From contig CAIPHT010000017.1 in assembly GCA_903864935.1 (NCBI GenBank), positions 16,096 through 80,095 of the forward strand: DNA of 64,000 nt. Direction: 5' to 3'. A model generated the notes under the pieces. The model worked only from the letters and a program-made list of their open reading frames with translations, had not been told where the DNA came from and made no database searches. How positions within the stretch are numbered: the first letter of the stretch is position 1; every line of letters starts with the position of its first letter. Positions 25,879 through 43,171 of this stretch are shown here, piece by piece. The position numbers were made by a program, and so were the translations under genes. Source of the DNA: Candidatus Vogelbacteria bacterium (GTDB lineage: Bacteria > Patescibacteriota > Minisyncoccia > Phycocordibacterales > XYD1-FULL-46-19).

Positions 25879-25882
25879 TCAC

Positions 25883-25903
25883 TTAGAGGCGAAGCCTCTA
25901 AGT
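25883..25903. repeat. REP-like palindrome, family 1, copy d: CTTAGAGGC-GAA-GCCTCTAAG, i.e. the opposite orientation
   Basis: Exact reverse complement of copies a and b, 5 nt after the transposase stop. Confidence 0.9.
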
Positions 25904-25937
25904 TGTAGAAATTTCCCCCTGACTTATCCACTTTTTT

Positions 25938-25962
25938 ATCGCTAAATATAGCGATTTTTTTG
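25938..25962 (+). terminator. hairpin ATCGCTA-aata-TAGCGAT plus T7; -10 box TATAAT at 25964-25969 directly after
   Basis: 7-bp stem then a U-tract. The giant-gene ATG is 14 nt after the -10, so that gene is probably leaderless or nearly so. Confidence 0.5.
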
Positions 25963-25982
25963 GTATAATATAAGCAAACTTT

Positions 25983-28900
25983 ATGTTTTCTGTTTGGCAA
26001 AATTTCGTGAGTAGAAAAGGCTTTTTTGGCGTTCTTTTTTTGATTGTTTTTTCTTTTATTTTGACGCCAACTTTTTCGGCTTTTGCCGTCACCGGTGTCC
26101 CGGCCACCATGAGCTATCAGGGTCGCTTGGCGAACTCAGCCGGTGATCTTGTTGGTGGTGCCGGTGCCATCTATTCTTTCAAATTTTCTCTCTGGGACAA
26201 TGCGACCGTTGGTGCGGGTTCGCAAGTTTGGCCAGCGGGCGCGCCCACCGCTGTCAATGCTACCGTCCGTCAAGGTCTCTTCAACGTCAACATTGGCGAC
26301 ACCGGGAGTGGTTATCCCGATGCTCTCAATTACGACTTCAGTCAGAACAACAAAATTTATTTGCAGGTTGAAGTCTCTTCCGACGGTCTTACTTACGAGA
26401 CTCTTGGTCCTCGTCAACCCATCACCAGTGCGCCCTTCGCTCAAGTCGCGGGTCAAGTCTCTGGCTCTGCTGTCTCCACTATGGGTGGTCTTGTCGTTAA
26501 CGGCGGGGTCACTAGCACCCACTCCACCACCACCGGCTCGGGCTACTTCGGCACCGCTTTAGGCCTCGCCGGTCAGTATATTAATTCTTGGTCTGACCTC
26601 GCCACTTATCTCCCCGTTGTTGTTGGTTGGAGCACCAGCTCTGATAGCACCAACTTCGCCACTCTCCTCGCTGGTACGACGACGGATGCTCTTGCTGAAG
26701 GTGTCAATCACAAGTATTACAGCAACGTCTACGTCGCTGATTATATTTCTTCCTCCTCCACCCTTGCCTCCTCGTTAAATTATTGGGCCAAGTCGGGGAG
26801 CGATCTTAGTTACACTGCGGGGAATGTTGGTGTCGGGATGAGCCCTGTCTACAAGCTTGATGTCAATGGCGCGATAAGGGCTAATGGTAGCAATATTATT
26901 GCTGGAGGCGGTTCGGTGTTTGGTTGGATTTTTGGTTCGAACGGTTTATCTAATGTTGACACTACCTTAAACACCTCGGCCGGTTACAATATTTTATTTA
27001 AAAATGGTACATCCGAGCAAATGAGAATCTCTTCAGGGGGTCTTGTTGGTATCGGCACCACCACCCCTACACAAAGACTCGACGTCCTCGGCAACATCCA
27101 AGTCAACGGCACCTCCTCCTACATGATCAATGGCGTCAACCTTGCTTTTGGTTCAACCACAAAACAAAATTATTTCTTCGGTGCGGCGGGCAATAGTAAT
27201 ATCACTGGGAGTTATAACACCGGTGTCGGCAAGGGCGCGCTCGTCACCACCACTTCGGGCGGTTACAATACGGCCGTTGGGCGTCAATCTCTCTACCTTA
27301 ATACTATCGGTTCATCAAACACGGCTTTGGGTAATAACGCTCTACAATCTGTCTCGGCAGGTGATGGCAATGTCGGCCTTGGTGCTGATGCTGGTCAATA
27401 CGAGCTCGGTTCTAACTCTTTCTACCTCAATAATATTGATCAGAACGATACCGCCGGCGACAAGGCCTACTCCTTATTGTATGGCAAATTCTCTGGTGTG
27501 GCCGGTTCGCTCACCAACCAATTCCTCACCGTCAACGGCAAACTTAATATCGGTACCACTACCATGGCCTCGACCTTCAACATTCAAGGTATCTCCGGTG
27601 TCTCGGCCTTAAATATTGCCTCATCAACTGGAGCTCCGATGTTCACGGTGGCAAGCAATGGCAACGTCGGTATCGGGACCAATGCGCCAGCGTATCCTTT
27701 GGACGTAAACGGGAATGCTAAAGTTAATGGAGTTTTGACCGTATTGAATGGCACTTCTTATGGTATTCTTGCGGGACTTTCAAAATTGAATTTGTATGAT
27801 AATGCCGGGAATGCCTCATATCAAAATAGTTATACTGGAGGTTGGGGTTTTGGAATTGGGAATATCTCGCCTACCTATACTTTAGACGTTAAAGGAAGTG
27901 GAGCTGCTGGTGGTATCTTTAATGTCGCTTCGTCGTCAGGAGTAAGTGCTTTGATGGTTTCGAATAATGGCAACGTCGGCATTGGCACAAACGCACCATC
28001 TACTGGGTTACATCTTTATGATAATACAAGCACTGCTAATAAAGCTCTTATGAGATTAGAGACTACGGCTGGAAGTGGTCAGAATGCTGGAATAAGAATG
28101 ATTGGCGGGGCTAGCAATGCAGATTGGATGATTGGTACTAATAGAGCCGATTTAGCTGGTGCAGGAGACAGCCTATTATTTTATAAAAGTTTAGGCACAG
28201 CCGGAACTAAAATGGTGATCCAAGATAACGGCAACGTCGGTATTGGCACCACTTCGCCCGCAACAGCCTTACATGTTTATGGCGCAACACCAGAGATTAG
28301 GTTAGATGCGAGTGGTAGCGTCAATGCTCAATATACTTTAAATCAAAACAATGTTAAATATGGTTTATTGGGTCTATCGCTAGCCACTGATCAGCTTGCT
28401 CTTGGGTCAGCTGTCGGTGACGTTGTCCTTAGAGCTAACGCTGGTCAGAAACTTATGTTAAGCGCCAACGGTTCAGGCGCAAGCTCGACCATGACTTTAT
28501 TGAATGGTCTTGTTGGGATTGGCACCACCACCCCAAGCTCCTTGCTTCATCTCTATGGCAGTAGCGCCAACCCTTTGATTCTTGAGAGAAATAGCAGCCT
28601 TGCTAATGTTGGAATTCAATTCAAAGATACTTCGGGCTCTTGGTATGCTGGTAAGGGTACTGGGACGGGGAATTTTGCTATTGGTACTGATGCTAATCTT
28701 GGGGCCAGCACAATTTTTAATATTCAATCGAATGGTAACGTTGGTATTGGGACTTCTTCACCAGCTAACCCTTTGACCGTTGCGGATAAAGCTCAGATCG
28801 GAACATCTATTACAAACACCTCTCAGTCCGCCTCACTTGTTGTCCAAGGCACGGCTTCAAGAGCAGCCATGTATATTCAGGGTGATGCTTCGCGTTCAGC

Positions 28901-31900
28901 TTCGACCGATTTGATTTATTCAGTCAATAGATATGGAGTCGCTGGCGGATTCCAAATGTTCGGTGATCACAGCATGCTTATCGGCAGTACCGGGAAAGAA
29001 TTTCAATATCAAGGTAGCACCGGCTATGTCGGTATCGGCACTACCTCACCATCACAGTTATTGACCGTTGGGAATAACAATCAATTTACCGTCACGTCTG
29101 GGGGAGCGGTTAGTGCCACGGGCGGATTCTCGACCAATGGCACTGTCAACGCTGGTTATTATCAACTTGGCGGTATCCAAGCCTTTGCTTACTCTGGGAC
29201 GCAGGTCCAAGTTTCGCCGGCCGCCTATTGGCAATCCCTCGGCTTATTTACCAATGGTTCAGAAAAAGTTTCTATTTTAAGTAATGGCAACGTCGGTATC
29301 GGTACCACTACCCCATGGGCCAAACTTTCTCTTCAGAATTCCTACGGCTCCACAGGGGCTTTGCTTGATATTGCCACTACCACCTCGTCGGCTTTTGCCA
29401 CTTCATCGGTCTTCTATGTGGGGTCCAATGGTTACGTCGCGGTGGGAACGAACAATCCAACCAATCTTTTTGAAGTTGATGTTGGTGGTGTTTATAAGGT
29501 AGCAGTAAATGCAGGAGGAACATTTGTTGCCAAGAATGACGTAATGACCAACCTGATTGGTGATCTTGGCTCAAAATATCAGAAGATAATGCTTGATCAA
29601 GCAAACGGTTTGAGATTCTTTGCTGGCTCTTCGGCTTCCAATGAGTATATGAGAATCAACCAATCTGGCCTCGTCGGCATCGGCACCACTTCACCAATGG
29701 CCACTCTGTCTGTCATGGGCACTTCAACCTTGCCGGGCGTTAATCCTTTTGTTGTCGCTTCTTCGTCTGGTGTTCAACTTTTAACCGTGTTGCCGAATGG
29801 TAATGTGGGGGTGGGGACAACAAATCCGAGTGCTAAATTAACAGCATTTTCCGATGCAACATCCGGCGCAATAGGAGACACTCTAAGAGTATTTTCTGGT
29901 CTAGGGTCTGTAGCATTAAAAATATATTCAACCACAAATGGTGACGGATTGATCATCAATCAGTATTATCAGGGTTCAGGGCAAAATTATATCAGAATGG
30001 CGGATATCGTGTCTAACTCAGGAGATACTTCAGAAGCACAAATTCGGTTTCTAACTAAGCCAAACTCAGCAAATCCTAGCGAAGCAATGCGAATTACTGG
30101 CAGTGGTTTTGTTGGTATCGGTACTACGAGCCCCGCTCTTAAATTGCATGTATTAGGCACTATTGGTCTGCCGGCTACTTCTGGTACGGCCCAGAATGGT
30201 GTCGCAAGATTCTCGGTTGACCCAGCCGGAACGGGTTATGTTTTGGATATGGGTGTTCTCTCCGGTGCCTCATGGTTGCAGACAACTATTGCCGGTGACC
30301 TAGGCACTTATGGTTCTTTGCTCTTGAACCCACGCGGGGGCAATATCGGTATTGGCACAGCTACTCCGGGTAAGACCTTAGATGTGAATGGTGATATCAG
30401 AATAGGGGTAAATAATAAACTTTATTTGGTCTCAACAAATGATAGTAATTATCTATCATATAATGAGTGGAACACTGCCTCCTCGATTGGTCTTAAGTTT
30501 TTAATTAGTGGCAACGAGAAGATGAGAATTGATGCTTCCGGCAACGTCGCCATTGGCACCTCAACCCCTTGGGCCAAGCTCGCCATTCAGAATTCCTACG
30601 GCTCCACTCAGGCCTTGTTTGATATAGCGACGACGACTTCATCAGCCTTCGCCACCTCGTCGGTCTTCTATGTTGGGGCGAATGGCAATGTGGGTATCGG
30701 CACGGCGAACCCTGCCAAGAGACTGTCAATAACGGATGCGAATACGGCCTTAAGCGCGTATGCTTTAAATATTAGTGCTTATAAGAGCTCTGGCAATTTC
30801 TCTGGACTCTCGTTTGGCGATGATAGTGGCGGAACTGTTTGGGGCGCAATTAAGTTCAAAGCCGATACCAATAACGACAGTTCTTTGAGATTCTTGACTT
30901 GGGACGGGACGACTGGCGGCACAGAGAGATTAACAATCAAGGGAGTTGGGGGCTCAGTTGGTATTGGTTCTACTTCTCCTATTTCTACCCTCTCTGTTAA
31001 AGGTGTTGCCGGCTATAATCCATTCACCATTTCTTCTTCCACGGATGCTTCGCTCCTCACTATCTTACAGAATGGCAACGTCGGTATTGGGACAAGTAGT
31101 CCGGCGACTTCTTTGGATGTTTATAGTAATACGACGGACAATATCTTCCGTTTGATGACGGGGCCCGCTATTGGGGTGATGCCCACCTTTACCATGTCAC
31201 AAGGGGGAACCAACAATTTTCAAATTGGCCGAGCGCTAACTCTTTTCAACCCTAACCTTGGGGGTATCGCCGCCGAGAATGATGTCGGTTTCTCTGCCCC
31301 GACCAACCGAAGCCTCTATTTTGGTACCGCCGCTAATCCTTACTTAGCAATAAGAAATGGTGGCAATGTGGGTATTGGCACGACGAGCCCCCCTGATTTA
31401 CTAACTGTTTACCATGATAGCTCCGCAGACACCGTCTTAAATATTTCTAATAATAGCCTCAGTGCAAGTTACGGGAGTTCGGTTTTGAAGTTCAGCCAAG
31501 GAAACGGTGAGGCAGCCTATATCTCTTGGAATCAGGCAAACCAGCTTTTTAAATTTGTAGCTGGACGAAATAATTTTAATAACTTCTCTTTCAATACTGT
31601 TACAGGAGGAGCTGAGGTCTCAAGATTATTTATACAAAATAATGGTAACGTTGGTATCGGCTCCACTTCACCAATGGCCACCTTGTCAGTAATGGGCACC
31701 TCGACCTTGCCGGGCGTTAATCCTTTTGTCGTCGCTTCTTCATCCGGTGCTCAACTTTTGACGGTGTTGCCAAATGGCAAAGTGGGCATAGGGACAACCG
31801 GACCTGTTACTAAGTTATCTTTATCGGATGCCACGTCCACTTTTCTAACTATTTCTAATACTAACAATGCTAGTGGTGTGGTCGGAGGAATGTTGTTCTC

Positions 31901-34900
31901 AAGTCAATACGAATCAACGTATAGAAAAGGGGCTATCTCTTTTGTGCGGACTGAGAGTAACGCAAACAGGGGTTATCTCTCTTTTGCCTTGGATGCCAGT
32001 AACACCGCTAGTAACGTTGACTCTGATATTATCGGTAATACAAAAATGGTCATTGACTATACTGGCTCTGTCGGGATTGGAACGACGGCCCCAGGGGCAA
32101 AGTTAGATATTGTTGGTGTAAATAATCAATTAAGAATTACTAATGCAGACGGAACTAATTATTATAGTATCGGTAGGAGTAATTCAAACGGGTATTTAGA
32201 GTTTAGTTTAACTGGTGCTAATTCTTATGGATATACATTCAATGGTGGCCTCGTCGGTATCGGTACCACTTCACCAATGGCCACCTTATCAGTAATGGGC
32301 ACTTCAACCTTGCCGGGCGTTAATCCTTTTGTCGTCGCTTCTTCATCCGGTGCTCAACTTTTGACTGTATTGCCGAGTGGTAACGTGGGAATTGGTATTT
32401 CTAATCCTGCTCAGTTACTGGATGTTGAGGGGAGAATAAGAGCTAATACCCTTGAGTTTGGCGCTAACAATAGTTATCTCGGTTATCTTGATCAGGGGGG
32501 TCTAGTCTTTAACTCTTCGGGTGTGGGGACTATCTATAATGCTTACTCTGGTTCCAACCTCTTCCTTTCTAGTAACGGAGGCAACGTGATATTGGGGATG
32601 AGAGATGACGGACTCGCTTCTTATAATGGCAAGGTGGGCATCGGCACTTCAACTCCTTTTGCCAAACTTGCCATTCAGAATTCCTTTGGTTCCACTCAGG
32701 CCTTGTTTGATATTGCGACGACCACTTCATCCGCCTTCGCCACCTCGTCGGTCTTCTATGTTGGGGCGAATGGTAATGTGGGTGTTGGTACTAACCTCCC
32801 GACAAATAAATTTACCGTCAGTGGGACAGTTGACCCTGTGCGCTTCCATAGCACCGGTCAAAATGTCTTAGAAATTTCTAGTACGGGGAATAGTGAGAAT
32901 GGTGTTAGATTCACTCGTAGCGGCGATGCCTCTTACTGGACCTTGGGGATGGATAATAATTCGACTAATGACTTTTATCTTGGCTCTAGCGGTTTTGGAA
33001 CAAAGTATCTAACTGTTTTGCAAACAAACGGCAACGTTGGTATTGGCACCACCACACCAATCTCCACTCTCTCTGTTTCCGGTACCGCGGGCATTAATCC
33101 GTTTACCATTGCTTCATCCACCGGCCAGACAATGCTAACAATGCTTCAGAATGGCAATGTGGGAATCGGTACAGCGAATCCAATTTCGCCTCTAACTATT
33201 TCTAAAAATTCTGCCACTACGGCAACTTGGTTAAATTTGGATAATACTGATGTTGGGGGCGCGGGGGTAATGTTGGATTTTACACAAGGCGGAGGGATGA
33301 TGGGACGAATAAATAGTTACTATGCTGGTAATGGGTTATGGAATCTTGGTTTGGGGACAAATGCTAACTCAGGATTGCCGGTGTTGTTTGTGACAAACGG
33401 CCGAGTGGGAGTAGCGAGCACTACGCCACAATCCACCTTCGCTGTCTCTGGTATCGCTGGCACAAATCCTTTCACTATTGCTTCTTCAACTGGCCAGACA
33501 ATGCTAACAATGCTTCAGAATGGCAACGTCGGTATTGGTACAGCGGCGCCAAGTTATCCATTGGATGTTGTCGCAAATTCAAGTGGATCAAATTTGAATC
33601 TTATAAACAACCCCAGTAATCTTTCGGGGATTAGATTTGGGGTAAATGGAACGCCTGCCTCTTCTTACACGACGATTTTCGCTGATGGCAGATCTACCGG
33701 TTATTTGTATATTAAAACTAATGATATTGAGCGATTCCGCATCGACTCAAATGGCAACGTCGGTATTGGCACGACAACCCCAAGTGATATCCTAAGTATC
33801 CAAGGTAATTCATCAATCCTTGGTAATACTCCTTCCGTTGGACTTAATAATACGGATTCTGGAGGTAGATTGTGGAGTATTTATTCTTCTGGTAACAGTA
33901 ATTCTATTGGCGGTGGTAAGTTTAGTATTTTTGATAAAACAGCCAGTTTAAATAGACTCGTTATTGATTCCTCTGGCAATGTGGGGATTGGTACTTCTAG
34001 CCCACAGTCAATTCTTCATCTCTATGGTGCGACAGTTAAGCCTCGACTCGAGCGTTCGGTTAGTTCGGGCGCGGCAGTTTTGGACTTCTGGCCATCGGGT
34101 ACTTTGAGTCAGGCTAATTCTGTTTGGAGTTTTGGTATGGTTGAGAATAATAGTAATTTCTCGGTCAATCAATGGACTGGCTCGCAAACTTTGCAGAGAC
34201 TTCTTGTTGATACGAATGGCAACGTTGGTATTGGTACGACGAGTCCTGCGGCGACTTTGGATATAGAGATAAATAATACATCAGGAGCTTCAACCATTCC
34301 TGTTTTTAGAGTAGGAAATTTGGCGGGTACTCCAGCCTACTTTGGTATTACATTGGGCGGTTCGGCGAGTGGTTGGGAAAATATCGCACAGCTCCAACTT
34401 AATGGGACTAAATACATATCTTTAGATGGTGGGCAATCCACAGTTGATTTACATAAAAATATGTTATTGGATAATAATGTATCTTTTCAGGCATCTTCCA
34501 ATGGATTTAACAACTTTGTTCCTTATAACACAGCTTTTTCAAATGGATTCTCTTTTGATACAGGCTCAATATTTAGCTTCCAGACAAATGGTAGTCCGGT
34601 TATGACAATATTAAATAATGGCAACGTCGGCATTGGCTCCACCACCCCGCTCTCCACCCTCTCAGTCTCCGGCACGGCTGGCACCAACCCATTCACAGTC
34701 GCTTCCTCCACTGGCAACGCGATGTTGACGATGCTTCAGAATGGCAATGTGGGAATCGGTACAGCGAATCCCGGGAACAAGCTTCATATTGTAGGTGGGG
34801 GTCTCTCTTTGGGTGATAGCGTTTCTGCCTTAACAACAAGGGGATTATTTAATATTCACGACTCAAGTAATGCTCGAATGAGCATTACTAAAGCAAGCGT

Positions 34901-37900
34901 TGGAGGGTTTAGATTTGATGTGACTGGGTCTGGAAGTAGCTACAGATTAAATATCGGAGATGATAATGTTGCTAATAGTGGCGATACTAATGCTTGGATG
35001 ACCTTTACTAATCTCGGCCTCGTCGGCCTCGGCACCACCACCCCTAACGCCAACCTTAATATCTTCGGTACCACCAACACCTTCATGCGGGTAGCCTCTT
35101 CAACCAATCAGAATATCTTCGTCATTGATAATAATGGCGACGTCTCCATGTCTGGTGGCTTGGCTCTCACTGGTCTCACTGGCAACATCATCACCTCAAC
35201 CAATGTTAAGCAAGCCATCCAAGACTTAGACACCAGCCTATATAATCAACAGAACAATACTAAGGAGATCACTGGTTTCCCTAACCGCACCGACACGAGC
35301 ATTGCCTTCACTAGCGGCACCCGCACCTTCACCATCACCGGCACCAACTTCAAGCTCTACTCAGTCGGCAAAGAATATACCAAGAATACCGAATCCATTG
35401 GTCTCCCTAACACTGTCGGCCTCTACTATATATACTACGACAAGACCAGCCACAACTTAGCCACCAGCACCACCGCTTGGGGTCTCACCGATGGCACCAT
35501 CCAAGTCGCCACGGTCTATTGGGATGGCACCACTGGCGTGTTGGGCGAAGAGCGTCACGGGGTCACCATGGATGGCGCCACTCATGAGTATCTCCACCAT
35601 ACTGTCGGTACCAGATACCAGTCTGGCTTAGCTGGTACCTTCAATTCCGACAGAACCTTCTCCATCACCGCTGGCGCGGTGGATGACGAAGATATCGAAG
35701 AGACAATCCCACTCACCACGACTGGTCGTATTCTCTACCACAATGGTCCAACCAACTTCACTTATACTTCGGCCACCTCCAGCTTCTTCGATGAGACTTG
35801 TACGGGCGGAGTTGTCTGTTACGACAATGCGGGCACCAAGGCGGCCGTCACAAACAACAACTATGTCGCCTATTGGATCTTCGCCACCAATGACCCGACC
35901 ACCCCAATCTACTCAATGATGGGTCAACGCCAAGACACCAGCCTCGCTAATGCTCAAGCTAATCAGACCTATGGCAGCCTCACACTTGGGACCCTCCCAT
36001 TTGCTGAGATGAAGTTACTCTATCGTGTCATTGTCAGGAACAACGCCGGCAGTACCTTGTCCGTCGATGACTATCGCTCCGTCTCTAACCTCCCATCGGG
36101 CACCTACCTCGCTACTTTGCACAGCAGTTTGACTGGTCTTACTAATGACGACCACACTCAATACGCTTTGCTCGCTGGTCGCGCTGGTGGTCAGAGTTTA
36201 ATTGGTGGCAATACCGCCGGAGACAATCTCACCTTGTTTGGCAACTCCATTGACTACGGCAATATCTTCACTCAACCTTATGGGGGGAGCTTAACGGTGG
36301 GCACCACTTCTACTATCACCCTCGCCAACACCTTATTCAATGTGGCTTCGTCTACTGGTGCCAATTACTTAACGGTGTTGAAGAATGGGAATGTTGGGAT
36401 TGGGACGAGTAGTCCAAGCACAAATTTTTACGTACAGGGCAATTCGGAGGTTACGGGGTATCTTATTGCTGGAGGGGCTTATTCCAACGCCGATACAGTT
36501 AGAATTTCTCTTGATGAATATACTGACCGAAGTAGAATTGCGACAGCTGGATATACCAACAAATATTATGCGGGAAGGGCGACCGGAGTAAATGGCGAAC
36601 ACCGTTTCTATGTTGGAGCCAATGGCTCATGGAATGAAGCACTAAGTATTCTATCTTCTGGTTCCATCGGTATTGGCACTACCACCCCTCTCGCCAAGCT
36701 TGATCTCACTGGGACCCTTGGGTCACTGGCCGATATCTTCAACGTCTCCACGAGCACGGGGGCCAACTTAGTCTCAAGTCTCTTCCGCATTACGGCCAAC
36801 GGCGATGTGTCTATTGGCGGAGCTAATCTTGGTAATTACAGCACCACCACCATCAATAATGACTTAGTGGTTGGTGGTGGCGCTCTCACTTACTCTTCAT
36901 CCACTGGCATTGTCTCAATTGATAATGTGGAGTTGGGAGCCACCTCCTTCCCAACTGATGCCGGGATGGTTAGCTGGATGGATATGCCTCTCACCTCAGG
37001 TACGGCTGCCGGTGTCGGTGTGGCTTATACTGCCAACCTCGCGGGCAACCCTATCCTTTCCATCGCTGGTATCTCTGATGGTAATGGCGACCTCTCGAGC
37101 TTTGGTGTTGGTATTGGTACCACCAGTGTGCCTGCCTTCCTTACAATCCAAAATGCTTCGACCACCAGCAATATGCCTCTGCTGCTTTTTGCTTCGTCTT
37201 CTGGATCTTCAATCCTCTCTATTTCTAATAATGGCAATATCGGGATTGGGACGAGTACCTCAGGTGGGACACTCCACGTAATTAATCCTACTGGTATAAC
37301 CTCAGCTAAGTTCCAGGCTGGCACTGGTAACACAATCACTAATTCTTTGTTAGAAATCTTACCTAATAGTGGGCTTAGTAAAATTTATTTCTCCTCTGAC
37401 AATAATGGGCAAAGAATGGTTTATCTTGATACGACGGGTTCACCAAGAATGAATATCGATAACTCGTCTATTGTCCAAGGTTCTAATCGTTTAATCAATT
37501 GGACATCTGGCGACATGAACGCCTCCGCTGATATTGGTCTTTCTCGCGGGGCCGCTGGTAAATTATATGTCGGCAATGGGGCAACCTATGACTATACCGG
37601 AGGATTAATCGCTGGGTCTGTGGGCATTGGCTCCAGCACTCCCGTGGCCAAGCTTTCCATCCATGATAATTCGGGACTCGCGGCATCTAATCCACTCTTC
37701 ACCATTGCTTCATCGAGCGCCGCGGGCACGGGCACTACCACTTTGTTGACGATACTCGGGAATGGCAACTTGGGCATTGGCACCGCTTCGCCGAATTCTC
37801 CACTTCAAATTTCTAACACTACCGCTACTACCAAATTTATTCGAGTGGGGACCAACTCCAATCCTTCCACCACAGCCAATGCTGGCGGTATAGTCGTGGA

Positions 37901-39824
37901 TGTTAACGGTGGTGGTGGGGTCTATATGGGAGACTCAGCCAACGGTCTTTATGGTAAGTATGAGGCCTATGGTGGGAAGATAGGTATCGGCTCAATGTCC
38001 AATCATCCTGTTGGTTTGTTTACAAATAGTGTTGAGCGATTAAGTATCACCAACGGTGGTTTGGTTGGCATTGGCACCACGACACCATCGGCGAAGTTCT
38101 CTATTCAGAATGCCTTCGGCGCGACTGGGGCTCTGTTTGATATTGCCACCACCACTTCTTCAGCTTTTGCTACCTCGTCACTCTTCACCGTGTTGGCCAA
38201 TGGTAATGTGGGTATCGGGACGAATAATCCGACATTGATATCTGGAGGAAGTGGTTTACATATTAAAAATAGTAACGGTGAAGGGAATCTTAGATTGGAT
38301 AGCACAGTTGGTAATAATCAACAGGTATTTGAATTAAGGACCGAAGGAACAGTGACAGGTTTTGAATTATACGATATTACTAATGGAAAAAGTAAAATAT
38401 GGGTTAAACCGAATAATGGTGACATAATGCTGATGAACAGCAACGTTGGCATTGGCACCACTTCACCAATTGCTAAATTATCAGTGATTGGAAATACTTA
38501 TCTAGGAGGCAATCTTACCGCCACAGGCACTCTTGATGTTGCCGGTACCACAACGATACCTTTTGGTTCCAAGATTGGCGACGTTGCGGGTAGTAATTAT
38601 GTGACCGTTGAGAATAGGCCATTCGATGGGACCTATGCCAGTGGCAGTATCCCTTTGATTAAATTCAACTCCCTGTTCCCTGGTGACTCATCGGTGGGTG
38701 GGATTGATAGGAGTTTGATAATTACGGCTAGTGGTGGTGTCTCGCCTTCACTTCAATTTGCCGCTGAAGATTTTGCCGATACCGCAAATGTCGGAAAAAT
38801 TATTTATGATACCCATAATAATAGAATGGTTGTTAGTGATATTACTGGTACGGGCGCTGTTAATTCAGTTGATTTGTTCATCCCTAATGGTAATGTGACA
38901 ATTAACGGGCTTAATAGTAACGGCGCCGTCTATTCGAATGGCGGTTTGCTCACCAACACCAATCCATCCTCTCGTGATTACAAGAAGAATATTATTGACA
39001 CTAATCTTAATCTTGACGCTCTACTCGGCTTGCAAGTTAAATCATTTGTTTGGAAGAATAATGGCCAGAGTGATTTTGGTCTGATTGCCGAGGAGGTTAA
39101 GAGTGCTTTGCCTGAGCTCTATGTGGATGATGGCAAGACCAAGGGTTATCGCGCCGACCACTTACCATTCTACTTATTGCAGATTGCTCAGCGCCAAGAA
39201 GGGGAGATTAATAGTTTGAACGAGCAAATCACCTCATTGCTCGGCGCCAGCACTAGCTCACCAATTACTCTCACCGAGGGTGGTCTGATTGATCCAAGTT
39301 TACTCGCCGTCTCTAGCTCAAGCCTCGCGGTGGCGACAACAACAGCCGAGACTTCTACTTCTACCGCTTTCTCAATTATCTCTGATCGGCTGCTTACGGG
39401 TGTCGGTACTGTCAAAGAGCTTGTCTCTGAGCGCATGGTGGCGATGGTGGGCCTCTTCGATTATATCAAGGCTAAGGTGGTCGAGACGGATACGCTTAAG
39501 GTCCAGAAGGGGATGGAGATTAAAGATTCGGCCACTGGCGATATCTACTGTGTCTTGATCGTGAATGGCGAATGGCAGAAGACGAAGGGCAAATGCTCGG
39601 ATGTCCCTGTTGCGCCTACCACGCCAAGCACGCCTACTTCTCCCGCTCCCGCTGACTCTTCTTCTGGCTCTTCCACCCCTTCGACTTCCGGTGATACTAG
39701 CACCAGCACACCTAGCTCTGATACTCCGGTAATTACCACTGATTCTTCTGTCCCTCCTGCCCCAACCGAACCAGCCCCAACTCCTGATCCTGTCCCAGCT
39801 CCAGCCCTCGAACCAGCTCCCTAA
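25983..39824 (+). CDS. Giant secreted fibre protein (4613 aa) with about 44 NGNVGIGTTxP-x3-L repeats, a tail-fibre-like central region, a C-terminal intramolecular chaperone (peptidase S74 / endosialidase-chaperone type) domain and a Pro/Thr/Ser-rich tail.
   Basis: N-terminal hydrophobic anchor (GFFGVLFLIVFSFILTPTFSAFA). The motif recurs every 60-130 aa. The C-terminal segment NTNPSSRDYKKNI..LDALLGLQVKSFVWKNNGQSDFGLIAEEVKSALPELYVDDGKTKGYRADHLPFYLLQIAQRQEGEINSLNEQI matches the S74 autoproteolytic chaperone pattern (SDRRLKENI..VSY.WK.....GFIAQEV..V.PE...). Confidence 0.85.
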   Translation: MFSVWQNFVSRKGFFGVLFLIVFSFILTPTFSAFAVTGVPATMSYQGRLANSAGDLVGGAGAIYSFKFSLWDNATVGAGSQVWPAGAPTAVNATVRQGLFNVNIGDTGSGYPDALNYDFSQNNKIYLQVEVSSDGLTYETLGPRQPITSAPFAQVAGQVSGSAVSTMGGLVVNGGVTSTHSTTTGSGYFGTALGLAGQYINSWSDLATYLPVVVGWSTSSDSTNFATLLAGTTTDALAEGVNHKYYSNVYVADYISSSSTLASSLNYWAKSGSDLSYTAGNVGVGMSPVYKLDVNGAIRANGSNIIAGGGSVFGWIFGSNGLSNVDTTLNTSAGYNILFKNGTSEQMRISSGGLVGIGTTTPTQRLDVLGNIQVNGTSSYMINGVNLAFGSTTKQNYFFGAAGNSNITGSYNTGVGKGALVTTTSGGYNTAVGRQSLYLNTIGSSNTALGNNALQSVSAGDGNVGLGADAGQYELGSNSFYLNNIDQNDTAGDKAYSLLYGKFSGVAGSLTNQFLTVNGKLNIGTTTMASTFNIQGISGVSALNIASSTGAPMFTVASNGNVGIGTNAPAYPLDVNGNAKVNGVLTVLNGTSYGILAGLSKLNLYDNAGNASYQNSYTGGWGFGIGNISPTYTLDVKGSGAAGGIFNVASSSGVSALMVSNNGNVGIGTNAPSTGLHLYDNTSTANKALMRLETTAGSGQNAGIRMIGGASNADWMIGTNRADLAGAGDSLLFYKSLGTAGTKMVIQDNGNVGIGTTSPATALHVYGATPEIRLDASGSVNAQYTLNQNNVKYGLLGLSLATDQLALGSAVGDVVLRANAGQKLMLSANGSGASSTMTLLNGLVGIGTTTPSSLLHLYGSSANPLILERNSSLANVGIQFKDTSGSWYAGKGTGTGNFAIGTDANLGASTIFNIQSNGNVGIGTSSPANPLTVADKAQIGTSITNTSQSASLVVQGTASRAAMYIQGDASRSASTDLIYSVNRYGVAGGFQMFGDHSMLIGSTGKEFQYQGSTGYVGIGTTSPSQLLTVGNNNQFTVTSGGAVSATGGFSTNGTVNAGYYQLGGIQAFAYSGTQVQVSPAAYWQSLGLFTNGSEKVSILSNGNVGIGTTTPWAKLSLQNSYGSTGALLDIATTTSSAFATSSVFYVGSNGYVAVGTNNPTNLFEVDVGGVYKVAVNAGGTFVAKNDVMTNLIGDLGSKYQKIMLDQANGLRFFAGSSASNEYMRINQSGLVGIGTTSPMATLSVMGTSTLPGVNPFVVASSSGVQLLTVLPNGNVGVGTTNPSAKLTAFSDATSGAIGDTLRVFSGLGSVALKIYSTTNGDGLIINQYYQGSGQNYIRMADIVSNSGDTSEAQIRFLTKPNSANPSEAMRITGSGFVGIGTTSPALKLHVLGTIGLPATSGTAQNGVARFSVDPAGTGYVLDMGVLSGASWLQTTIAGDLGTYGSLLLNPRGGNIGIGTATPGKTLDVNGDIRIGVNNKLYLVSTNDSNYLSYNEWNTASSIGLKFLISGNEKMRIDASGNVAIGTSTPWAKLAIQNSYGSTQALFDIATTTSSAFATSSVFYVGANGNVGIGTANPAKRLSITDANTALSAYALNISAYKSSGNFSGLSFGDDSGGTVWGAIKFKADTNNDSSLRFLTWDGTTGGTERLTIKGVGGSVGIGSTSPISTLSVKGVAGYNPFTISSSTDASLLTILQNGNVGIGTSSPATSLDVYSNTTDNIFRLMTGPAIGVMPTFTMSQGGTNNFQIGRALTLFNPNLGGIAAENDVGFSAPTNRSLYFGTAANPYLAIRNGGNVGIGTTSPPDLLTVYHDSSADTVLNISNNSLSASYGSSVLKFSQGNGEAAYISWNQANQLFKFVAGRNNFNNFSFNTVTGGAEVSRLFIQNNGNVGIGSTSPMATLSVMGTSTLPGVNPFVVASSSGAQLLTVLPNGKVGIGTTGPVTKLSLSDATSTFLTISNTNNASGVVGGMLFSSQYESTYRKGAISFVRTESNANRGYLSFALDASNTASNVDSDIIGNTKMVIDYTGSVGIGTTAPGAKLDIVGVNNQLRITNADGTNYYSIGRSNSNGYLEFSLTGANSYGYTFNGGLVGIGTTSPMATLSVMGTSTLPGVNPFVVASSSGAQLLTVLPSGNVGIGISNPAQLLDVEGRIRANTLEFGANNSYLGYLDQGGLVFNSSGVGTIYNAYSGSNLFLSSNGGNVILGMRDDGLASYNGKVGIGTSTPFAKLAIQNSFGSTQALFDIATTTSSAFATSSVFYVGANGNVGVGTNLPTNKFTVSGTVDPVRFHSTGQNVLEISSTGNSENGVRFTRSGDASYWTLGMDNNSTNDFYLGSSGFGTKYLTVLQTNGNVGIGTTTPISTLSVSGTAGINPFTIASSTGQTMLTMLQNGNVGIGTANPISPLTISKNSATTATWLNLDNTDVGGAGVMLDFTQGGGMMGRINSYYAGNGLWNLGLGTNANSGLPVLFVTNGRVGVASTTPQSTFAVSGIAGTNPFTIASSTGQTMLTMLQNGNVGIGTAAPSYPLDVVANSSGSNLNLINNPSNLSGIRFGVNGTPASSYTTIFADGRSTGYLYIKTNDIERFRIDSNGNVGIGTTTPSDILSIQGNSSILGNTPSVGLNNTDSGGRLWSIYSSGNSNSIGGGKFSIFDKTASLNRLVIDSSGNVGIGTSSPQSILHLYGATVKPRLERSVSSGAAVLDFWPSGTLSQANSVWSFGMVENNSNFSVNQWTGSQTLQRLLVDTNGNVGIGTTSPAATLDIEINNTSGASTIPVFRVGNLAGTPAYFGITLGGSASGWENIAQLQLNGTKYISLDGGQSTVDLHKNMLLDNNVSFQASSNGFNNFVPYNTAFSNGFSFDTGSIFSFQTNGSPVMTILNNGNVGIGSTTPLSTLSVSGTAGTNPFTVASSTGNAMLTMLQNGNVGIGTANPGNKLHIVGGGLSLGDSVSALTTRGLFNIHDSSNARMSITKASVGGFRFDVTGSGSSYRLNIGDDNVANSGDTNAWMTFTNLGLVGLGTTTPNANLNIFGTTNTFMRVASSTNQNIFVIDNNGDVSMSGGLALTGLTGNIITSTNVKQAIQDLDTSLYNQQNNTKEITGFPNRTDTSIAFTSGTRTFTITGTNFKLYSVGKEYTKNTESIGLPNTVGLYYIYYDKTSHNLATSTTAWGLTDGTIQVATVYWDGTTGVLGEERHGVTMDGATHEYLHHTVGTRYQSGLAGTFNSDRTFSITAGAVDDEDIEETIPLTTTGRILYHNGPTNFTYTSATSSFFDETCTGGVVCYDNAGTKAAVTNNNYVAYWIFATNDPTTPIYSMMGQRQDTSLANAQANQTYGSLTLGTLPFAEMKLLYRVIVRNNAGSTLSVDDYRSVSNLPSGTYLATLHSSLTGLTNDDHTQYALLAGRAGGQSLIGGNTAGDNLTLFGNSIDYGNIFTQPYGGSLTVGTTSTITLANTLFNVASSTGANYLTVLKNGNVGIGTSSPSTNFYVQGNSEVTGYLIAGGAYSNADTVRISLDEYTDRSRIATAGYTNKYYAGRATGVNGEHRFYVGANGSWNEALSILSSGSIGIGTTTPLAKLDLTGTLGSLADIFNVSTSTGANLVSSLFRITANGDVSIGGANLGNYSTTTINNDLVVGGGALTYSSSTGIVSIDNVELGATSFPTDAGMVSWMDMPLTSGTAAGVGVAYTANLAGNPILSIAGISDGNGDLSSFGVGIGTTSVPAFLTIQNASTTSNMPLLLFASSSGSSILSISNNGNIGIGTSTSGGTLHVINPTGITSAKFQAGTGNTITNSLLEILPNSGLSKIYFSSDNNGQRMVYLDTTGSPRMNIDNSSIVQGSNRLINWTSGDMNASADIGLSRGAAGKLYVGNGATYDYTGGLIAGSVGIGSSTPVAKLSIHDNSGLAASNPLFTIASSSAAGTGTTTLLTILGNGNLGIGTASPNSPLQISNTTATTKFIRVGTNSNPSTTANAGGIVVDVNGGGGVYMGDSANGLYGKYEAYGGKIGIGSMSNHPVGLFTNSVERLSITNGGLVGIGTTTPSAKFSIQNAFGATGALFDIATTTSSAFATSSLFTVLANGNVGIGTNNPTLISGGSGLHIKNSNGEGNLRLDSTVGNNQQVFELRTEGTVTGFELYDITNGKSKIWVKPNNGDIMLMNSNVGIGTTSPIAKLSVIGNTYLGGNLTATGTLDVAGTTTIPFGSKIGDVAGSNYVTVENRPFDGTYASGSIPLIKFNSLFPGDSSVGGIDRSLIITASGGVSPSLQFAAEDFADTANVGKIIYDTHNNRMVVSDITGTGAVNSVDLFIPNGNVTINGLNSNGAVYSNGGLLTNTNPSSRDYKKNIIDTNLNLDALLGLQVKSFVWKNNGQSDFGLIAEEVKSALPELYVDDGKTKGYRADHLPFYLLQIAQRQEGEINSLNEQITSLLGASTSSPITLTEGGLIDPSLLAVSSSSLAVATTTAETSTSTAFSIISDRLLTGVGTVKELVSERMVAMVGLFDYIKAKVVETDTLKVQKGMEIKDSATGDIYCVLIVNGEWQKTKGKCSDVPVAPTTPSTPTSPAPADSSSGSSTPSTSGDTSTSTPSSDTPVITTDSSVPPAPTEPAPTPDPVPAPALEPAP

Positions 39825-39829
39825 TTTGT

Positions 39830-39842
39830 CTAGGCCTTGCCT
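39830..39842. repeat. 13-nt remnant of the REP family-2 palindrome (CTAGGCCTTGCCT) between the giant gene stop and the LamG gene
   Basis: Exact match to the core of the 42886 copy. The chance of this at this length in 64 kb is negligible. Confidence 0.6.
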
Positions 39843-39869
39843 GGACAAAACCAAGTGCTTAAAATATTT

Positions 39870-42077
39870 ATGAATAAAATTTTATTTTTTATAATCTCTA
39901 TTAGTTTAGGCTTGACCTTTTCTCTTCCCGCCTTTTCTCTGGCCGCACAAATTGATTCCGCCCCCACTCGTGGCCTTGTTGGCTACTGGTCTTTCGACGA
40001 AGGGACCTCTACTATTGCCCATGATTATTCAGGGAATAAAAATAATGGGACTTTGGTGGGAACTCCTAAACCTAGTTGGGTTGCTGGTAAAAATGGTAAA
40101 GCTTTAATTTTGAATGATGCGACGCAATATGTTGATGCGGGGACAGGTAATACGGGTGTTTATAATCCGGGTCAAACCTTTACTTTGTCTGTTTGGGTAT
40201 TACCAACTGCAACCGGTAAAGCTAGTGGAGCTGATATAATTCAAAAACAAACAGGCTCTGCTTCACCGTATGCGAGTTGGTCACTTGATTTTAGTAATAA
40301 TCAGGAATTTGGGCTTGGCTTAGGTGGGACAAATAATACATTTTATGATTTCAGGGCAAAAACGCCAGCCGTTGCACTTAATCAGTGGTACCATGTTGTG
40401 GCAACTTATGATGGCACGACGATAAAAACATATTTAAATGGGGCCCTGTCTAATTCCGAAGTTTTCCCACTGACTATTAAATACACCAGTGACAAACTTG
40501 TTTTTGGATCATGGTCTTATGGTCAGGCAACTAATTTATTTGTCGGTAAAATAGATGAAGCTCGCATCTACAACCGTGCCCTAACAGCCGGCGAAATTTC
40601 TGCCCTTTATCAAACCAGCGCCACCAAGATTAATCCAGCACCGCCGATCAATAAAGCTGGTCTTAATGCTGGACTCATTGCTTATTGGACGATGGATACT
40701 CAAGATATTAATTGGACGACGAGCCGGATGATTGATAAGTCGGGGAGTGGTAACACGGGCACACTTGGAGCCTTTACTAGTACGGCCTCGGCTCTGGGTA
40801 AATTGGGACAGACGCTCAAGTTCAATGGTACGAGCAATTATCTGGTCAATAGTCAGGTGGTTAATATCACCAAGTCCACCGTCTCGGCGTGGGTCAATTT
40901 GCCGAGCTACCCCACGAGCGGGAGCTTGGGCATGCTCGCTGGTTTTGCTCAAGGTAATAATTCTGATACTCACGACAAGGACCTCTTCATCGATGGGAGT
41001 GGTAAGGCCTATTATTACACTTACACTGGCCAACTCAAGTGCACCACTGAGCCGACCAATGCCATTCCGCGCAATTCTTGGCACTTGGTCACCGGCACTA
41101 ACGATGGTGTTAACAATTATCTTTATATTGATGGACAGCTGGCCGGTTCGGTCTCCGCCGGTAATTCGTATGCTGGCTATGGTTCGGCCAACCTGCTTGT
41201 TGGGGGCAAAGTTAATTATTCCGGCTCGGTTGGTTGTGGTACCGGCAACACCACGCGCACCTATCTCCCGGCGAATACCAAGATTGATGATGTGCGCATC
41301 TACAACCGCGCGCTCTCAGCGAGTGAAGTTAAAACTTTATATAATCAGAGCCAGGGGACAAAAGTGAATGCTCCTCCGACTCTCAAACCTCTTGGTCTCG
41401 ACTCCGGCCTTGTCGGTTATTGGACAATGAACAATCAAGACATTAATTGGAAGACGATGACGATGGTAGACAAATCCGGCAAAGGCAACACTGGCACGCT
41501 CACCAACATGCCTACCTCCACTTCCCCCGTCGCCGGCAAAATTGGTCAGGCGTTGAAGTTTAATGGGAGTAGTTACGTTGATACTAATAGTGCAAGTCTT
41601 GGTCTAACAAATAGTAGTGATCTGACCGTCTCTGTTTGGTTTAAAAGAGCCGATTCGGATGTCGGCCAGCATCATTTGGTTAGTGATTATAATAAAAATA
41701 CGCCAACGGGTTGGATGTTTATGTTCGAATCTAACTACTTATGGATAAAAAATTATCAAACGAGCGCAGTGAACGCAAGAATGTCTGCATCCGTCTCAAC
41801 CATTATTGATACGAAGTGGCATCACGCAGTCGGGATAATAAAAGGAGATGGAACAGATACAAAATTATATATAGACGGCATCCTCCAAGGGAGCAGTTTT
41901 TTTGGTGGTGCGGGAGGCATTGTGACTCAATTGAACATGGGAAGCGGGAATGTAACTATCGGGAGACAGTCCTTGCCTTCTGAAAGATTTTTCAATGGCT
42001 CTATCGACGACACCCGCATCTATAATCGCACCCTTACCCCCGCCGAAGTCCTCCAACTCTACCGCCAAGGAAAATAA
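39870..42077 (+). CDS. secreted protein with three tandem LamG / ConA-like lectin-glucanase domains
   Basis: Signal peptide MNKILFFIISISLGLTFSLPAFSLA. Three repeats each start (L)VGYW(S/T)(F/M)D and end D(E/D)xRIYNR(A/T)L(T/S)..E(I/V)..LY, the hallmark of the LamG_3 / ConA-like superfamily. The ATG at 39870 is chosen over the upstream TTG. Confidence 0.75.
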   Translation: MNKILFFIISISLGLTFSLPAFSLAAQIDSAPTRGLVGYWSFDEGTSTIAHDYSGNKNNGTLVGTPKPSWVAGKNGKALILNDATQYVDAGTGNTGVYNPGQTFTLSVWVLPTATGKASGADIIQKQTGSASPYASWSLDFSNNQEFGLGLGGTNNTFYDFRAKTPAVALNQWYHVVATYDGTTIKTYLNGALSNSEVFPLTIKYTSDKLVFGSWSYGQATNLFVGKIDEARIYNRALTAGEISALYQTSATKINPAPPINKAGLNAGLIAYWTMDTQDINWTTSRMIDKSGSGNTGTLGAFTSTASALGKLGQTLKFNGTSNYLVNSQVVNITKSTVSAWVNLPSYPTSGSLGMLAGFAQGNNSDTHDKDLFIDGSGKAYYYTYTGQLKCTTEPTNAIPRNSWHLVTGTNDGVNNYLYIDGQLAGSVSAGNSYAGYGSANLLVGGKVNYSGSVGCGTGNTTRTYLPANTKIDDVRIYNRALSASEVKTLYNQSQGTKVNAPPTLKPLGLDSGLVGYWTMNNQDINWKTMTMVDKSGKGNTGTLTNMPTSTSPVAGKIGQALKFNGSSYVDTNSASLGLTNSSDLTVSVWFKRADSDVGQHHLVSDYNKNTPTGWMFMFESNYLWIKNYQTSAVNARMSASVSTIIDTKWHHAVGIIKGDGTDTKLYIDGILQGSSFFGGAGGIVTQLNMGSGNVTIGRQSLPSERFFNGSIDDTRIYNRTLTPAEVLQLYRQGK

Positions 42078-42096
42078 TTACCGCCAAGGCAAAAAT
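42059..42096. repeat. 19-bp tandem direct duplication (ctaccgccaaggaaaataa / ttaccgccaaggcaaaaat) spanning the LamG gene stop codon
   Basis: 17 of 19 positions identical, immediately adjacent. Confidence 0.7.
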
Positions 42097-42120
42097 TTCA
42101 CCGAGGTAGTTTTTTGCCCA

Positions 42121-42149
42121 ATCACCGCTAGGCATTGCCTAGCGGTGAT
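42121..42149. repeat. REP-like palindrome, family 2, copy a: core CCGCTAGGC-ATT-GCCTAGCGG, extended to 14-bp arms (ATCACCGCTAGGCA/TGCCTAGCGGTGAT)
   Basis: Perfect inverted repeat read directly. Confidence 0.9.
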
Positions 42150-42195
42150 TATACGTTGCAAACAAAGGCTAAATTTATCCACATTTTTCCATTTT

Positions 42196-42216
42196 CCGCT
42201 AGGCATTGCCTAGCGG
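42196..42216. repeat. REP-like palindrome, family 2, copy b, followed by TATAAT and the transposase ATG
   Basis: ccgctaggcattgcctagcgg, then tataat (42217-42222), then ATG at 42223. Confidence 0.9.
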
Positions 42217-42222
42217 TATAAT

Positions 42223-42903
42223 ATGTTTATGTCGGAAAGGAAATTTATTTTTTCGATCGGTGAATTTTATCACATCTATAATCGTGGAGTAGAGAAGCGC
42301 GTTATCTTTAACACGGTCGCAGACAAATATCGTTTCTTGAAGTTGCTTTATTTGTGTAATGGAGGAGAGCCTTTTAAGTTCGATGAACTAAAGAGAGGTG
42401 AGGAATATCTATTCAGACGGGGCGAACCGATTGTTGATATATGCGCCTATTGTTTAATGGACAATCACTATCATCTTATCCTGAGAGAAATTAAGGAGGG
42501 CGGGATCAGTATTTTTATGCACCGGCTTGGGACTTCTTACTCAGCCTATTTTAATAAATTGAATGAACGCAAAGGGTCATTATTCCAAGATAAATTTGGG
42601 GCCAGACATTTTGATAGTGATGAATATTTGAAATATGGGATTGCTTATAATCATCTTAATCCGGTGAAAATGGTTGAGCCCAAGTGGAAGGAGGAGGGCA
42701 TTAAAGATATGGATAAGGTAAAAAAATTTATCGAGAAATATCGCTTTTCTAGTTATCTTGATTATAAGGGCCAAAAACGGAACGAAAATCGCATTTTGAA
42801 TATGGATTCTTTGCCCGAGTATTTTGATAATGCCAAGGAGTTTGACGATTACTTAACTGATTGGCTAGGTTATCATGCGGAAGAACCGCTAGGCCTTGCC
42901 TAG
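42223..42903 (+). CDS. HuH-family tyrosine transposase of the IS200/REP-associated (RAYT-like) type, copy 2
   Basis: IGEFYHIYNRGVEKR. HuH motif MDNHYHLIL. RKGSLFQDKF. YGIAYNHLNPVK, comparable to the Y..NPVK motif of REP-associated Y1 transposases. FSSY. The stop codon TAG lies inside REP2 copy c. Confidence 0.8.
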   Translation: MFMSERKFIFSIGEFYHIYNRGVEKRVIFNTVADKYRFLKLLYLCNGGEPFKFDELKRGEEYLFRRGEPIVDICAYCLMDNHYHLILREIKEGGISIFMHRLGTSYSAYFNKLNERKGSLFQDKFGARHFDSDEYLKYGIAYNHLNPVKMVEPKWKEEGIKDMDKVKKFIEKYRFSSYLDYKGQKRNENRILNMDSLPEYFDNAKEFDDYLTDWLGYHAEEPLGLA

Positions 42904-42906
42904 CGG
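42886..42906. repeat. REP-like palindrome, family 2, copy c (loop variant CTT), overlapping the transposase stop
   Basis: ccgctaggccttgcctagcgg. Confidence 0.9.
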
Positions 42907-42957
42907 TAATTTAATGTCGATAAATAAGGCTTAAATAGCCACTGCTTTTGGAGTTTT

Positions 42958-42984
42958 CCCTAGGCATTGCCTAGCGGTTTTTTT
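42958..42984 (+). terminator. REP family 2, copy d (5' arm degenerate: CCCTAGGCATTGCCTAGCGG) plus T7; acts structurally as a hairpin and U-tract terminator
   Basis: Hairpin followed by ttttttt. Confidence 0.6.
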
Positions 42985-43040
42985 GCTTGAGAGACGAATT
43001 ATGTTAGGATATATGAGACCATATGTCAGAAATGGTATAT

Positions 43041-43114
43041 GGGCCTATAGTTCAATGGTAGAACAATGGTCTCCAAAACCATCGATCGAGGTTCGAGTCC
43101 TCGTGGGCCCGCCA
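43041..43114 (+). tRNA. tRNA-Trp (anticodon CCA), CCA end encoded
   Basis: GGGCCTA-TA-GTTC-AATGGTA-GAAC-A-ATGGT-CTCCAAA-ACCAT-CGAT-CGAGG-TTCGAGT-CCTCG-TGGGCCC-G-CCA. Cloverleaf folded by hand. Confidence 0.85.
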
Positions 43115-43171
43115 GAAACAGGATTTAAGAAGGTTTGCTTATTTTTTGCCATCGTTTATAATAGGCTTAAT

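Follow-up and report, generated by a model that had tools for sequence, protein, structure and literature searches.

Does the gene at positions 42223-42903 of a 64-kb stretch of DNA from a Candidatus Vogelbacteria bacterium (contig CAIPHT010000017.1; hereafter the window), together with the short palindromes that surround it, form a system of repetitive extragenic palindromic (REP) sequences and a REP-associated tyrosine transposase (RAYT)? To our knowledge, REP/RAYT systems have been characterized almost entirely in Proteobacteria, and we know of no resolution of the route by which RAYTs disseminate REPs. A full-text search that paired RAYT and REP terms with the names of the Candidate Phyla Radiation (CPR) found no literature describing such systems in CPR bacteria, and the text of the main survey of the superfamily makes no mention of CPR (Quentin et al. 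2018, PMC6006769). The region 42120-42984 is probably a REPtron-like unit, in which a RAYT-type Y1/HUH gene carries on each side a doublet of its cognate 21-nt palindrome (Table 1). The case is built on the fold and the catalytic motifs of the protein, the arrangement of its flanks, the recurrence of this arrangement with locus-specific stems, the dispersal of the palindromes in other genomes, and a compensatory change that preserves palindromy.

The palindrome of this locus (family 2), CCGCTAGGC-NTT-GCCTAGCGG, occurs four times around the gene (at 42125, 42196, 42886, and 42957), as had been noted in a preliminary description of the sequence. A search of the window with the pattern CCGCTAGGC-NNN-GCCTAGCGG matched the first three sites exactly and the fourth with 2 mismatches, where 0.03 matches were expected by chance; four matches were reached in none of 100 shuffled sequences. 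The last copy indeed has the degenerate 5′ arm and the T7 tract attributed to it earlier, and the arm can be read either with the 2 mismatches or with one G deleted. The first copy had rightly been credited with 14-bp arms, but its outline of 42121-42149 was one base short on each side; as single-stranded DNA (ssDNA), it folds with -16.1 kcal/mol (z-score -8.9). The third copy has the loop CTT and holds the transposase stop codon, again in agreement with the preliminary description, and in two homologous loci (L034 and L037), the tblastn match of the homolog stops within a few bases of the palindrome. The two copies of each pair are spaced by 71 nt both upstream and downstream of the gene, and the 50-nt spacers of the two doublets align with ~60% identity, which points to one hairpin-spacer-hairpin module of ~92 nt on each side. 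As ssDNA, these modules can fold either into two hairpins or into one long hairpin of the REPIN (REP doublet forming a hairpin) kind, with z-scores of -7.2 and -6.1. A known structured RNA was rejected as the identity of the palindromes, because an Rfam scan returned nothing above threshold except a tRNA-Trp. The TATAAT box behind the second copy was not called by a promoter consensus scan; judging by its sequence, it may function as a promoter.

Judging from its sequence and its modeled structure, the gene between the doublets encodes a putative Y1/HUH enzyme with the Y...NP motif of REP-associated transposases. It matches Pfam Y1_Tnp (PF01797) with 26 bits, above the cutoff of 23, and contains IGEFYHIYNRGVE as well as the motifs NHYH and YNHLNPVK, which had already been recognized in this reading frame. 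The HUH motif corresponds to N81-H82-Y83-H84, and the catalytic Y142 is accompanied by N146-P147 (Y-N-H-L-N-P); across an alignment of 86 sequences, E14, Y16, H17, N81, H82, H84, Y142, and N146 are invariant. The C-terminal domain is also conserved, and no Pfam model lies over it. An AlphaFold (AF2) model (pLDDT 92.4, pTM 0.89) has as its top solved structure in Foldseek 4ER8_A (E = 5e-6, TM 0.68), the REP-associated tyrosine transposase of E. coli with a bound REP hairpin (Messing 2012, PMC3479197), followed by the TnpA proteins of ISDra2 and IS608 (matches including 2XM3 and 2VJV). The link to 4ER8 was made by the fold search alone, because sequence searches of the PDB recovered no Y1 transposase, the single sequence giving one chance-level match and a profile of 23 sequences none. 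An exact-sequence lookup of the protein matched no record. Clustered at 90% identity, its homologs make up at least 2,720 groups, with a best match of 89%, and all source names that bear an organism refer to Patescibacteria/CPR (Vogel-, Yonath-, and Kaiserbacteria, Paceibacterota). In a relative with 89% identity (P0001), the start is equivalent to 42229 (MSERK). Viral contigs yielded no copy of the palindrome and one weak (27%) homolog, and phage carriage was rejected on this search.

Table 1. Coordinates of the features in and around the unit, with the family-1 unit and other elements of the window.
Feature	Position	Strand	Description
RAYT-like Y1/HUH enzyme	42223-42903	+	226-aa open reading frame (ORF); likely start 42229
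Family-2 copy 1	42120-42150 (core 42125-42145)		14-bp arms, loop ATT; 5-bp copy-specific palindromic extension
Family-2 copy 2	42196-42216		9-bp arms, loop ATT; abuts -10-like box of the gene
Family-2 copy 3	42886-42906		Loop CTT; encodes C-terminal PLGLA and TAG stop at 42901-42903
Family-2 copy 4 + T7	42957-42984 (palindrome 42957-42977)	+	Degenerate 5′ arm; intrinsic-terminator-like
TATAAT box	42217-42222	+	Directly after copy 2, 0-6 nt before ATG
19-bp tandem duplication	42060-42097		Tandem Repeats Finder (TRF): period 19, 2.1 copies, 90% matches
Family-1 unit	24779-25902	+	Gene 25213-25878 plus own palindrome
Orphan AGG-apex quasi-palindrome TGTCTAGGC-ctt-GCCTGGACA	39827-39847		1 mismatch; between 4613-aa gene and Laminin_G_3 gene

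A gene flanked by its own palindrome recurs in CPR bacteria, with stems that are specific to the locus. A metagenome scan provided 80 loci with homologs (counts below are over 75 genes or 69 loci), in which hairpins were scored if the stem was perfect and 8 bp or longer, the loop 3-5 nt, and the GC content at least 40%. Such hairpins are located within 120 nt upstream of 37 of the 75 genes and within the same distance downstream of 33, compared with a background, more than 500 nt from the gene, of 0.25 per kb or ~0.03 per 120 nt. In 18 of 69 loci, both flanks of the gene have the same core; where the relation of the flanking loops could be scored, they are reverse complements (inverted) in 11 cases and identical (direct) in 5. 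Seven genes carry an internal palindrome in frame at nt 164-173. The stem sequence varies from locus to locus, and the apex AGG-N-(3 nt)-N-CCT is common: counted from the loop, position -4 of the arm is A in 49, position -3 is G in 50, and position -2 is G in 53 of 58 hairpin families, a rule that also fits the two families of the window (CCGCT-AGG-C and CTTAG-AGG-C). Gene-flanking copies elsewhere share a common core and bear copy-specific palindromic extensions. Many loci have an upstream copy, a TATAAT-like box ~5-25 nt further on, and the ATG another 5-10 nt downstream, a layout that the window matches, and co-resident paralogs (39-50% identical) occur in three other loci.

The arrangement has been retained in a close relative (locus L125, 89% identical), which shares with the window the downstream doublet, the palindrome over the end of the gene, and the synteny of the region. 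Its contig begins at the upstream hairpin, a copy in which a G:C pair is changed to C:G in both arms; by this compensatory flip, palindromy has been kept at the level of the DNA. Since the fourth copy of L125 is perfect, that of the window has decayed. Directly adjoining the palindrome cluster, a segment of ~160 nt that comprises tRNA-Trp and the sequence upstream of it has opposite orientations in the window (42978-43140; tRNA-Trp on the + strand at 43041-43114) and in L125 (780-950; tRNA-Trp on the - strand at 816-891). At the inversion junction, L125 contains an additional half-palindrome, GGCCTTGCCTAGCGGTGATT.

Cognate palindromes are also found away from the genes. In 204 kb of sequence flanking 40 loci, seven copies are separated from the gene by more than 300 nt, several of them within ORFs, where by our estimate chance would produce essentially none; the density of cognate copies near homologs is ~1 per 30 kb. 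The family-2 21-mer is present in 44 places among 185,579 species genomes, with an estimated chance expectation of ~9 (596 Gb / 4^18). Of these places, ~29 belong to CPR bacteria (Nomura-, Vogel-, and Saccharibacteria, Paceibacterota), in which a single draft genome contains up to six exact copies, most of them far from any transposase gene. A tblastn match to either transposase of the window was obtained at only 6 of the 44 loci. Eight places are part of another, longer repeat of Bacteroidota, and ~7 others are high-GC singletons, which is consistent with chance. The multi-copy repeat of Bacteroidota, …GAGAGGTTCT-core-CTGCCTACTCGAT…, centers on the same 9-bp stem with the loop TTT, AAA, or ATT and was encountered in L001, L007, L019, and L025 (Salinivirgaceae), L027, L033, and L043 (Bacteroidetes Ww25), and L036.

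Among the CPR copies, 13 are situated within long ORFs, all in a single frame and orientation and all reading (S/T)ARQGLA (13/13); the other open frame, ARPCLA, is used in none of the 13. The host genes identified with Pfam include those for the NAD-dependent DNA ligase LigA (in two genomes), ArgS, MurB, MnmA, PheT, an FAD oxidase, and a TP_methylase (sites include L017 589, L018 4272, L013 5447, L010 1744, L028 4731, L040 1515, L002 4191, and L003 1863). The palindrome peptide of ArgS occupies a loop that is equal in length to that of palindrome-free orthologs, and the net gain from the palindrome is 3 aa in LigA and 2 aa in PheT, for which reason a clean insertion of 21 nt into these genes was rejected. 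The element in LigA is old: decayed versions (including SARQDLAE, CVRQDLTQ, and SAKQNLAE) are present in dozens of orthologs; the perfect palindrome is found in only four. In one LigA ortholog, another palindromic insert, itself imperfect, occupies precisely the apex of the first one. The flanks are palindromic beyond the 9-bp stem in 31 of 37 CPR copies, compared with ~10 expected, and five of the 31 reside at the apex of terminator-like stems that are longer by 6-12 bp. Two origins are suggested by these flanks: new copies may arrive in the single-stranded apex of hairpins that were already there, or the flanks may have been palindromized by template switching. The ArgS loop that holds family 2 in L013 contains a different palindrome in L016 (7772-7840), CTCCCCCT-GCGA-AGGGGGAG, which is translated to ISPPAKGEVGG; related peptides (KGEVG/KGEAG) are present in the ArgS orthologs P0124, P0133, and P0160.

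The window contains a second unit with a paralogous gene (family 1), whose product scores 22.4 bits with Y1_Tnp, just below the cutoff. The two proteins, which had been judged by eye to be roughly one-third identical, share 39% identity in an alignment of 147 aa (E = 6e-31) that does not include the C-terminal third. The family-1 palindrome, CTTAGAGGC-TTC/GAA-GCCTCTAAG, is located at 24779, 25169, and 25882 and differs from family 2 in sequence while having the same geometry. The earlier observation that each paralog has a hairpin of its own with a shared geometry is thereby borne out and extends to the AGG apex of the whole family; the window itself contains seven AGG-apex hairpins, compared with 0.04 in shuffled sequences. 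A degenerate copy of the family-1 palindrome (25657-25677) lies in frame inside the paralog, where three mismatches remove the TAG. It breaks the tyrosine motif right after Y...N (YVNLN-DKIHQIGGEAS-KLVK), and the enzyme of the paralog may therefore be impaired.

The preliminary description had gone further and read this pattern as the one expected if each RAYT co-evolves with its cognate REP. Pairwise comparison shows that a stem is common only to proteins that are at least 75% identical, and protein pairs with identical 8-nt cores have a mean identity of 73% (3 pairs), whereas the other classes reach 43-47%. However, the correlation between protein identity and stem is slight (Spearman rho -0.13), and the family-2 stem is found directly upstream of a protein with 44% identity (L030) and at the match end of one with 47% (L034). 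In one Saccharibacteria genome, where family 2 is present six times, a homolog is preceded by another palindrome, GCGGAGGG-ttc-CCCTCCGC. Each gene thus has its own palindrome, common to close relatives, but the variable base of the stem is not tightly tied to the protein sequence; strict co-evolution of enzyme and hairpin is weakly supported by these comparisons. The conserved apex is the more plausible candidate for a generic recognition element.

Like the E. coli REPtron, which consists of TnpAREP (a RAYT) and REP sequences or bacterial interspersed mosaic elements (REP/BIME; Nunvar 2010, PMC2817692; Ton-Hoang 2012, PMC3333891; Messing 2012, PMC3479197), the unit has a low-copy Y1/HUH gene with Y...NP, flanking palindromes of its own, doublets that can fold in a REPIN-like manner, and palindromes also away from the gene (here in other genomes), besides having 4ER8 as its best structural match. 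It differs from the REPtron in its stems, which are perfect and bulge-free, 8-13 bp long, with a 3-nt loop and an AGG apex; in the density of the palindromes (~1 per 30 kb near genes rather than hundreds per genome), many of which are in coding sequence; and in a protein of ~220 aa that has an additional conserved domain at its C terminus. The gene conforms to class 2 of the RAYT/TnpAREP proteins, which have Y---NP and not Y---Q (Quentin et al. 2018, PMC6006769), also in its low copy number (two genes in 64 kb that are 39% identical) and in its flanking palindromes (four copies at most 110 nt from the gene).

Within this class, comparison with the published motif signatures alone places the protein close to TnpAY1 subclass 2.1 (group 1 RAYTs of Bertels, or TIRYTs), with which it shares the motifs NH[YF]H, FQ/FE (rather than W[EQ]), and Y[IV]HLNP and a length of ~220-240 aa with a C-terminal domain. 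Subclass 2.1 is reported to have no REP-like sequences nearby (PMC6006769), and TIRYTs carry GGGG[AT][CG]A[CG] inverted repeats instead, whereas about half of the loci studied here have a perfect palindrome within 120 nt. The seven internal copies at nt 164-173 of homologs and the degenerate copy at 25657 parallel subclass 2.4 (Cyanobacteria, Bacteroidetes), in which REP copies occur in frame inside the transposase gene; unlike in subclass 2.4, whose motifs are NH[IFV]H, WQ, and YIxNNP, the internal copies are mostly located before HuH. The palindromic elements of Rickettsia, said to have been described by Ogata and colleagues in 2000, are reportedly selfish and in frame in protein genes. The copies in CPR genomes are like them in that they lie in frame within essential genes and do not destroy these, but they are much shorter (~21-27 nt rather than ~100-150 bp), always encode (S/T)ARQGLA, and are associated with a Y1 enzyme, whereas the elements of Rickettsia have no known cognate enzyme.

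Several observations weigh against a RAYT/REP system in the usual sense. The preliminary identification of a REP/RAYT pair holds insofar as a Y1/HUH enzyme with Y...NP is boxed in by its own palindrome, but the rest of the window contains no further copies of family 2, and family 1 likewise has no copies away from its gene in these 64 kb, so that dispersal in the same genome is not seen there. The 5′ GT[AG]G foot of canonical REPs is absent from the family-2 copies, whose flanks are T...A or variable, and the NCBIfam model REP_Tyr_transpos (NF047646) gives 32.9 bits, far from its cutoff of 80. The loops of all four family-2 copies point in the same direction, with NTT on the + strand, which is the direct layout of IS200/IS605 elements and not the inverted one that is commoner among the homologous loci in which it could be scored. 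The motifs seem to be those of a subclass reported without REPs, and the non-clean copies inside genes are not accounted for by a simple cut-and-paste or copy-in model. The system is atypical in its lack of the GTAG foot, its minimal perfect stems, its low copy number, its frequent intragenic copies, and its subclass-2.1 motifs, and the locus of the window is one ordinary member of this atypical CPR variant of RAYT/REP-like systems.

Taking the TnpAREP of E. coli and the TnpA of IS608 as models, we propose that the palindrome folds into a 9-bp hairpin when the DNA is transiently single-stranded and that the enzyme would recognize the family-wide apex (AGG-N, 3-nt loop, N-CCT) and possibly also the lineage-specific base of the stem. 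It would then bind and cleave the hairpin near its foot by means of Y142, with a metal held by H82, H84, and N146, and rejoin the strands. In this manner, palindromes may be copied or moved at low frequency to new sites, including the apices of hairpins and coding regions. The second copy, at the presumed promoter of the gene, could be an operator or insulator, and the fourth copy with its T7 could terminate transcription before tRNA-Trp; both are plausible as secondary uses.

If the hairpins were merely local terminators or attenuators of the gene and its neighbors, unconnected with the activity of the enzyme, it would be understandable that a terminator-like scan called the third and fourth copies. 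However, only one of the four copies has a T tract and two precede the gene, the sequence also occurs in ~29 other CPR genomes, and homologs have locus-specific palindromes on both sides and, in seven cases, even in the gene; comparison of the loci contradicts this explanation, which is scarcely credible. A domesticated DNA-binding or nicking protein in the company of host cis-elements (terminators, mRNA stabilizers, operators, nucleoid or replication signals), which were spread by recombination or template switching and not by the enzyme, would accommodate an AGG-apex hairpin at every intergenic junction between 24.8 and 43.0 kb, the T7 after the fourth copy, and the upstream copies that abut a TATAAT box in many loci; the palindromic flanks of solo copies also fit either palindromization by template switching or residence at terminator apices. 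This is nevertheless rather unlikely, because an identical 21-mer in unrelated genes of different CPR classes needs a copying mechanism, because perfect Watson-Crick stems, copies upstream of promoters, and the presence of both orientations argue for a ligand at the DNA level rather than an RNA signal, and because the protein has kept its full set of catalytic residues.

The enzyme could also belong to an autonomous insertion sequence (IS) of the IS200/IS605 type (IS608, ISDra2), in which gene and subterminal hairpins are mobile together on one strand. The Y1 transposase fold and probably the chemistry, with recognition of hairpins in ssDNA, would be common to both, as are hairpins at both ends, and the uniform orientation of the four loops and the breaks of the assemblies at hairpins in L125, L009, and L037 are in agreement with such an element. 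We regard this as very unlikely, since members of that family have Y...Q rather than Y...NP (PMC6006769), a length of ~130-150 aa, imperfect hairpins, multiple near-identical copies, and often tnpB, none of which was seen here; only the direct loop orientation of the window locus fits. Paralogs are 39-50% identical, the best database relative, at 89%, resides in the same genomic context, homologous loci, where they could be scored, are more often inverted than direct (11 vs 5), and solo palindromes are far from transposase genes and also inside housekeeping genes. A REPtron-like unit remains the probable identity of the locus. A more far-reaching combination of these results is tentative and at present doubtful, namely, that CPR bacteria hold a large, undescribed branch of RAYT-like enzymes with cognate perfect palindromes of 21-27 nt and a universal AGG apex, which, instead of simply inserting, land in the apices of existing hairpins (nested) and overwrite a loop-sized patch in essential genes at almost no net change in length and always in the same frame and orientation, as (S/T)ARQGLA. 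Such behavior would suggest a strand exchange or patch replacement of fixed geometry, a reaction undescribed for Y1 transposases.

The surroundings of the unit contain further repeats. The 19-bp tandem duplication at its edge is real and spans the stop codon of the upstream LamG gene, as noted earlier (Laminin_G_3 by Pfam, 39837-42077, a three-domain protein), but nothing ties it to the element; it was rejected as a target-site duplication, because the other end of the unit has no matching sequence. The two RAYT paralogs bracket two large genes, one encoding a surface protein of 4613 aa (25983-39824) and the other the Laminin_G_3 gene, and an AGG-apex hairpin is present at each gene junction in the block 24779-43000. 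A third family of palindromes, AAATGTCCAACAT-CCG-ATGTTGGACATTT, at 17198-17226 and 18734-18758, brackets a GC-richer island of two ORFs that adjoins tRNA-Tyr, the 3′ part of which is partially duplicated at ~16985-17042; judging by its sequence, the island at 16862-18758 looks like an integrated element with an attachment (att)-like duplication. A near-identical copy of the third-family palindrome directly adjoins a family-2 copy in L004 (Paceibacterota). In a Saccharibacteria genome (L038, 6565-7599), two family-2 palindromes with inverted loops bracket a gene for an APH-type phosphotransferase, which follows a trmD-like ORF (identified by eye) and resembles a hairpin-bounded gene cassette.

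The locus is part of a CPR-wide family of very large size, with an unusually clean link between enzyme and palindrome: the palindromes are short, perfect, and locus-specific and share a common apex. The presence of such palindromes contradicts the published statement that subclass 2.1, whose motifs the enzymes match, lacks REPs. Filled and empty orthologs of essential genes offer a comparative handle on the moving unit, its landing site, and the part of the hairpin that is read by the enzyme. In the streamlined genomes of CPR bacteria, these palindromes are a source, so far overlooked, of sequence variation in frame and of breaks in genome assemblies.

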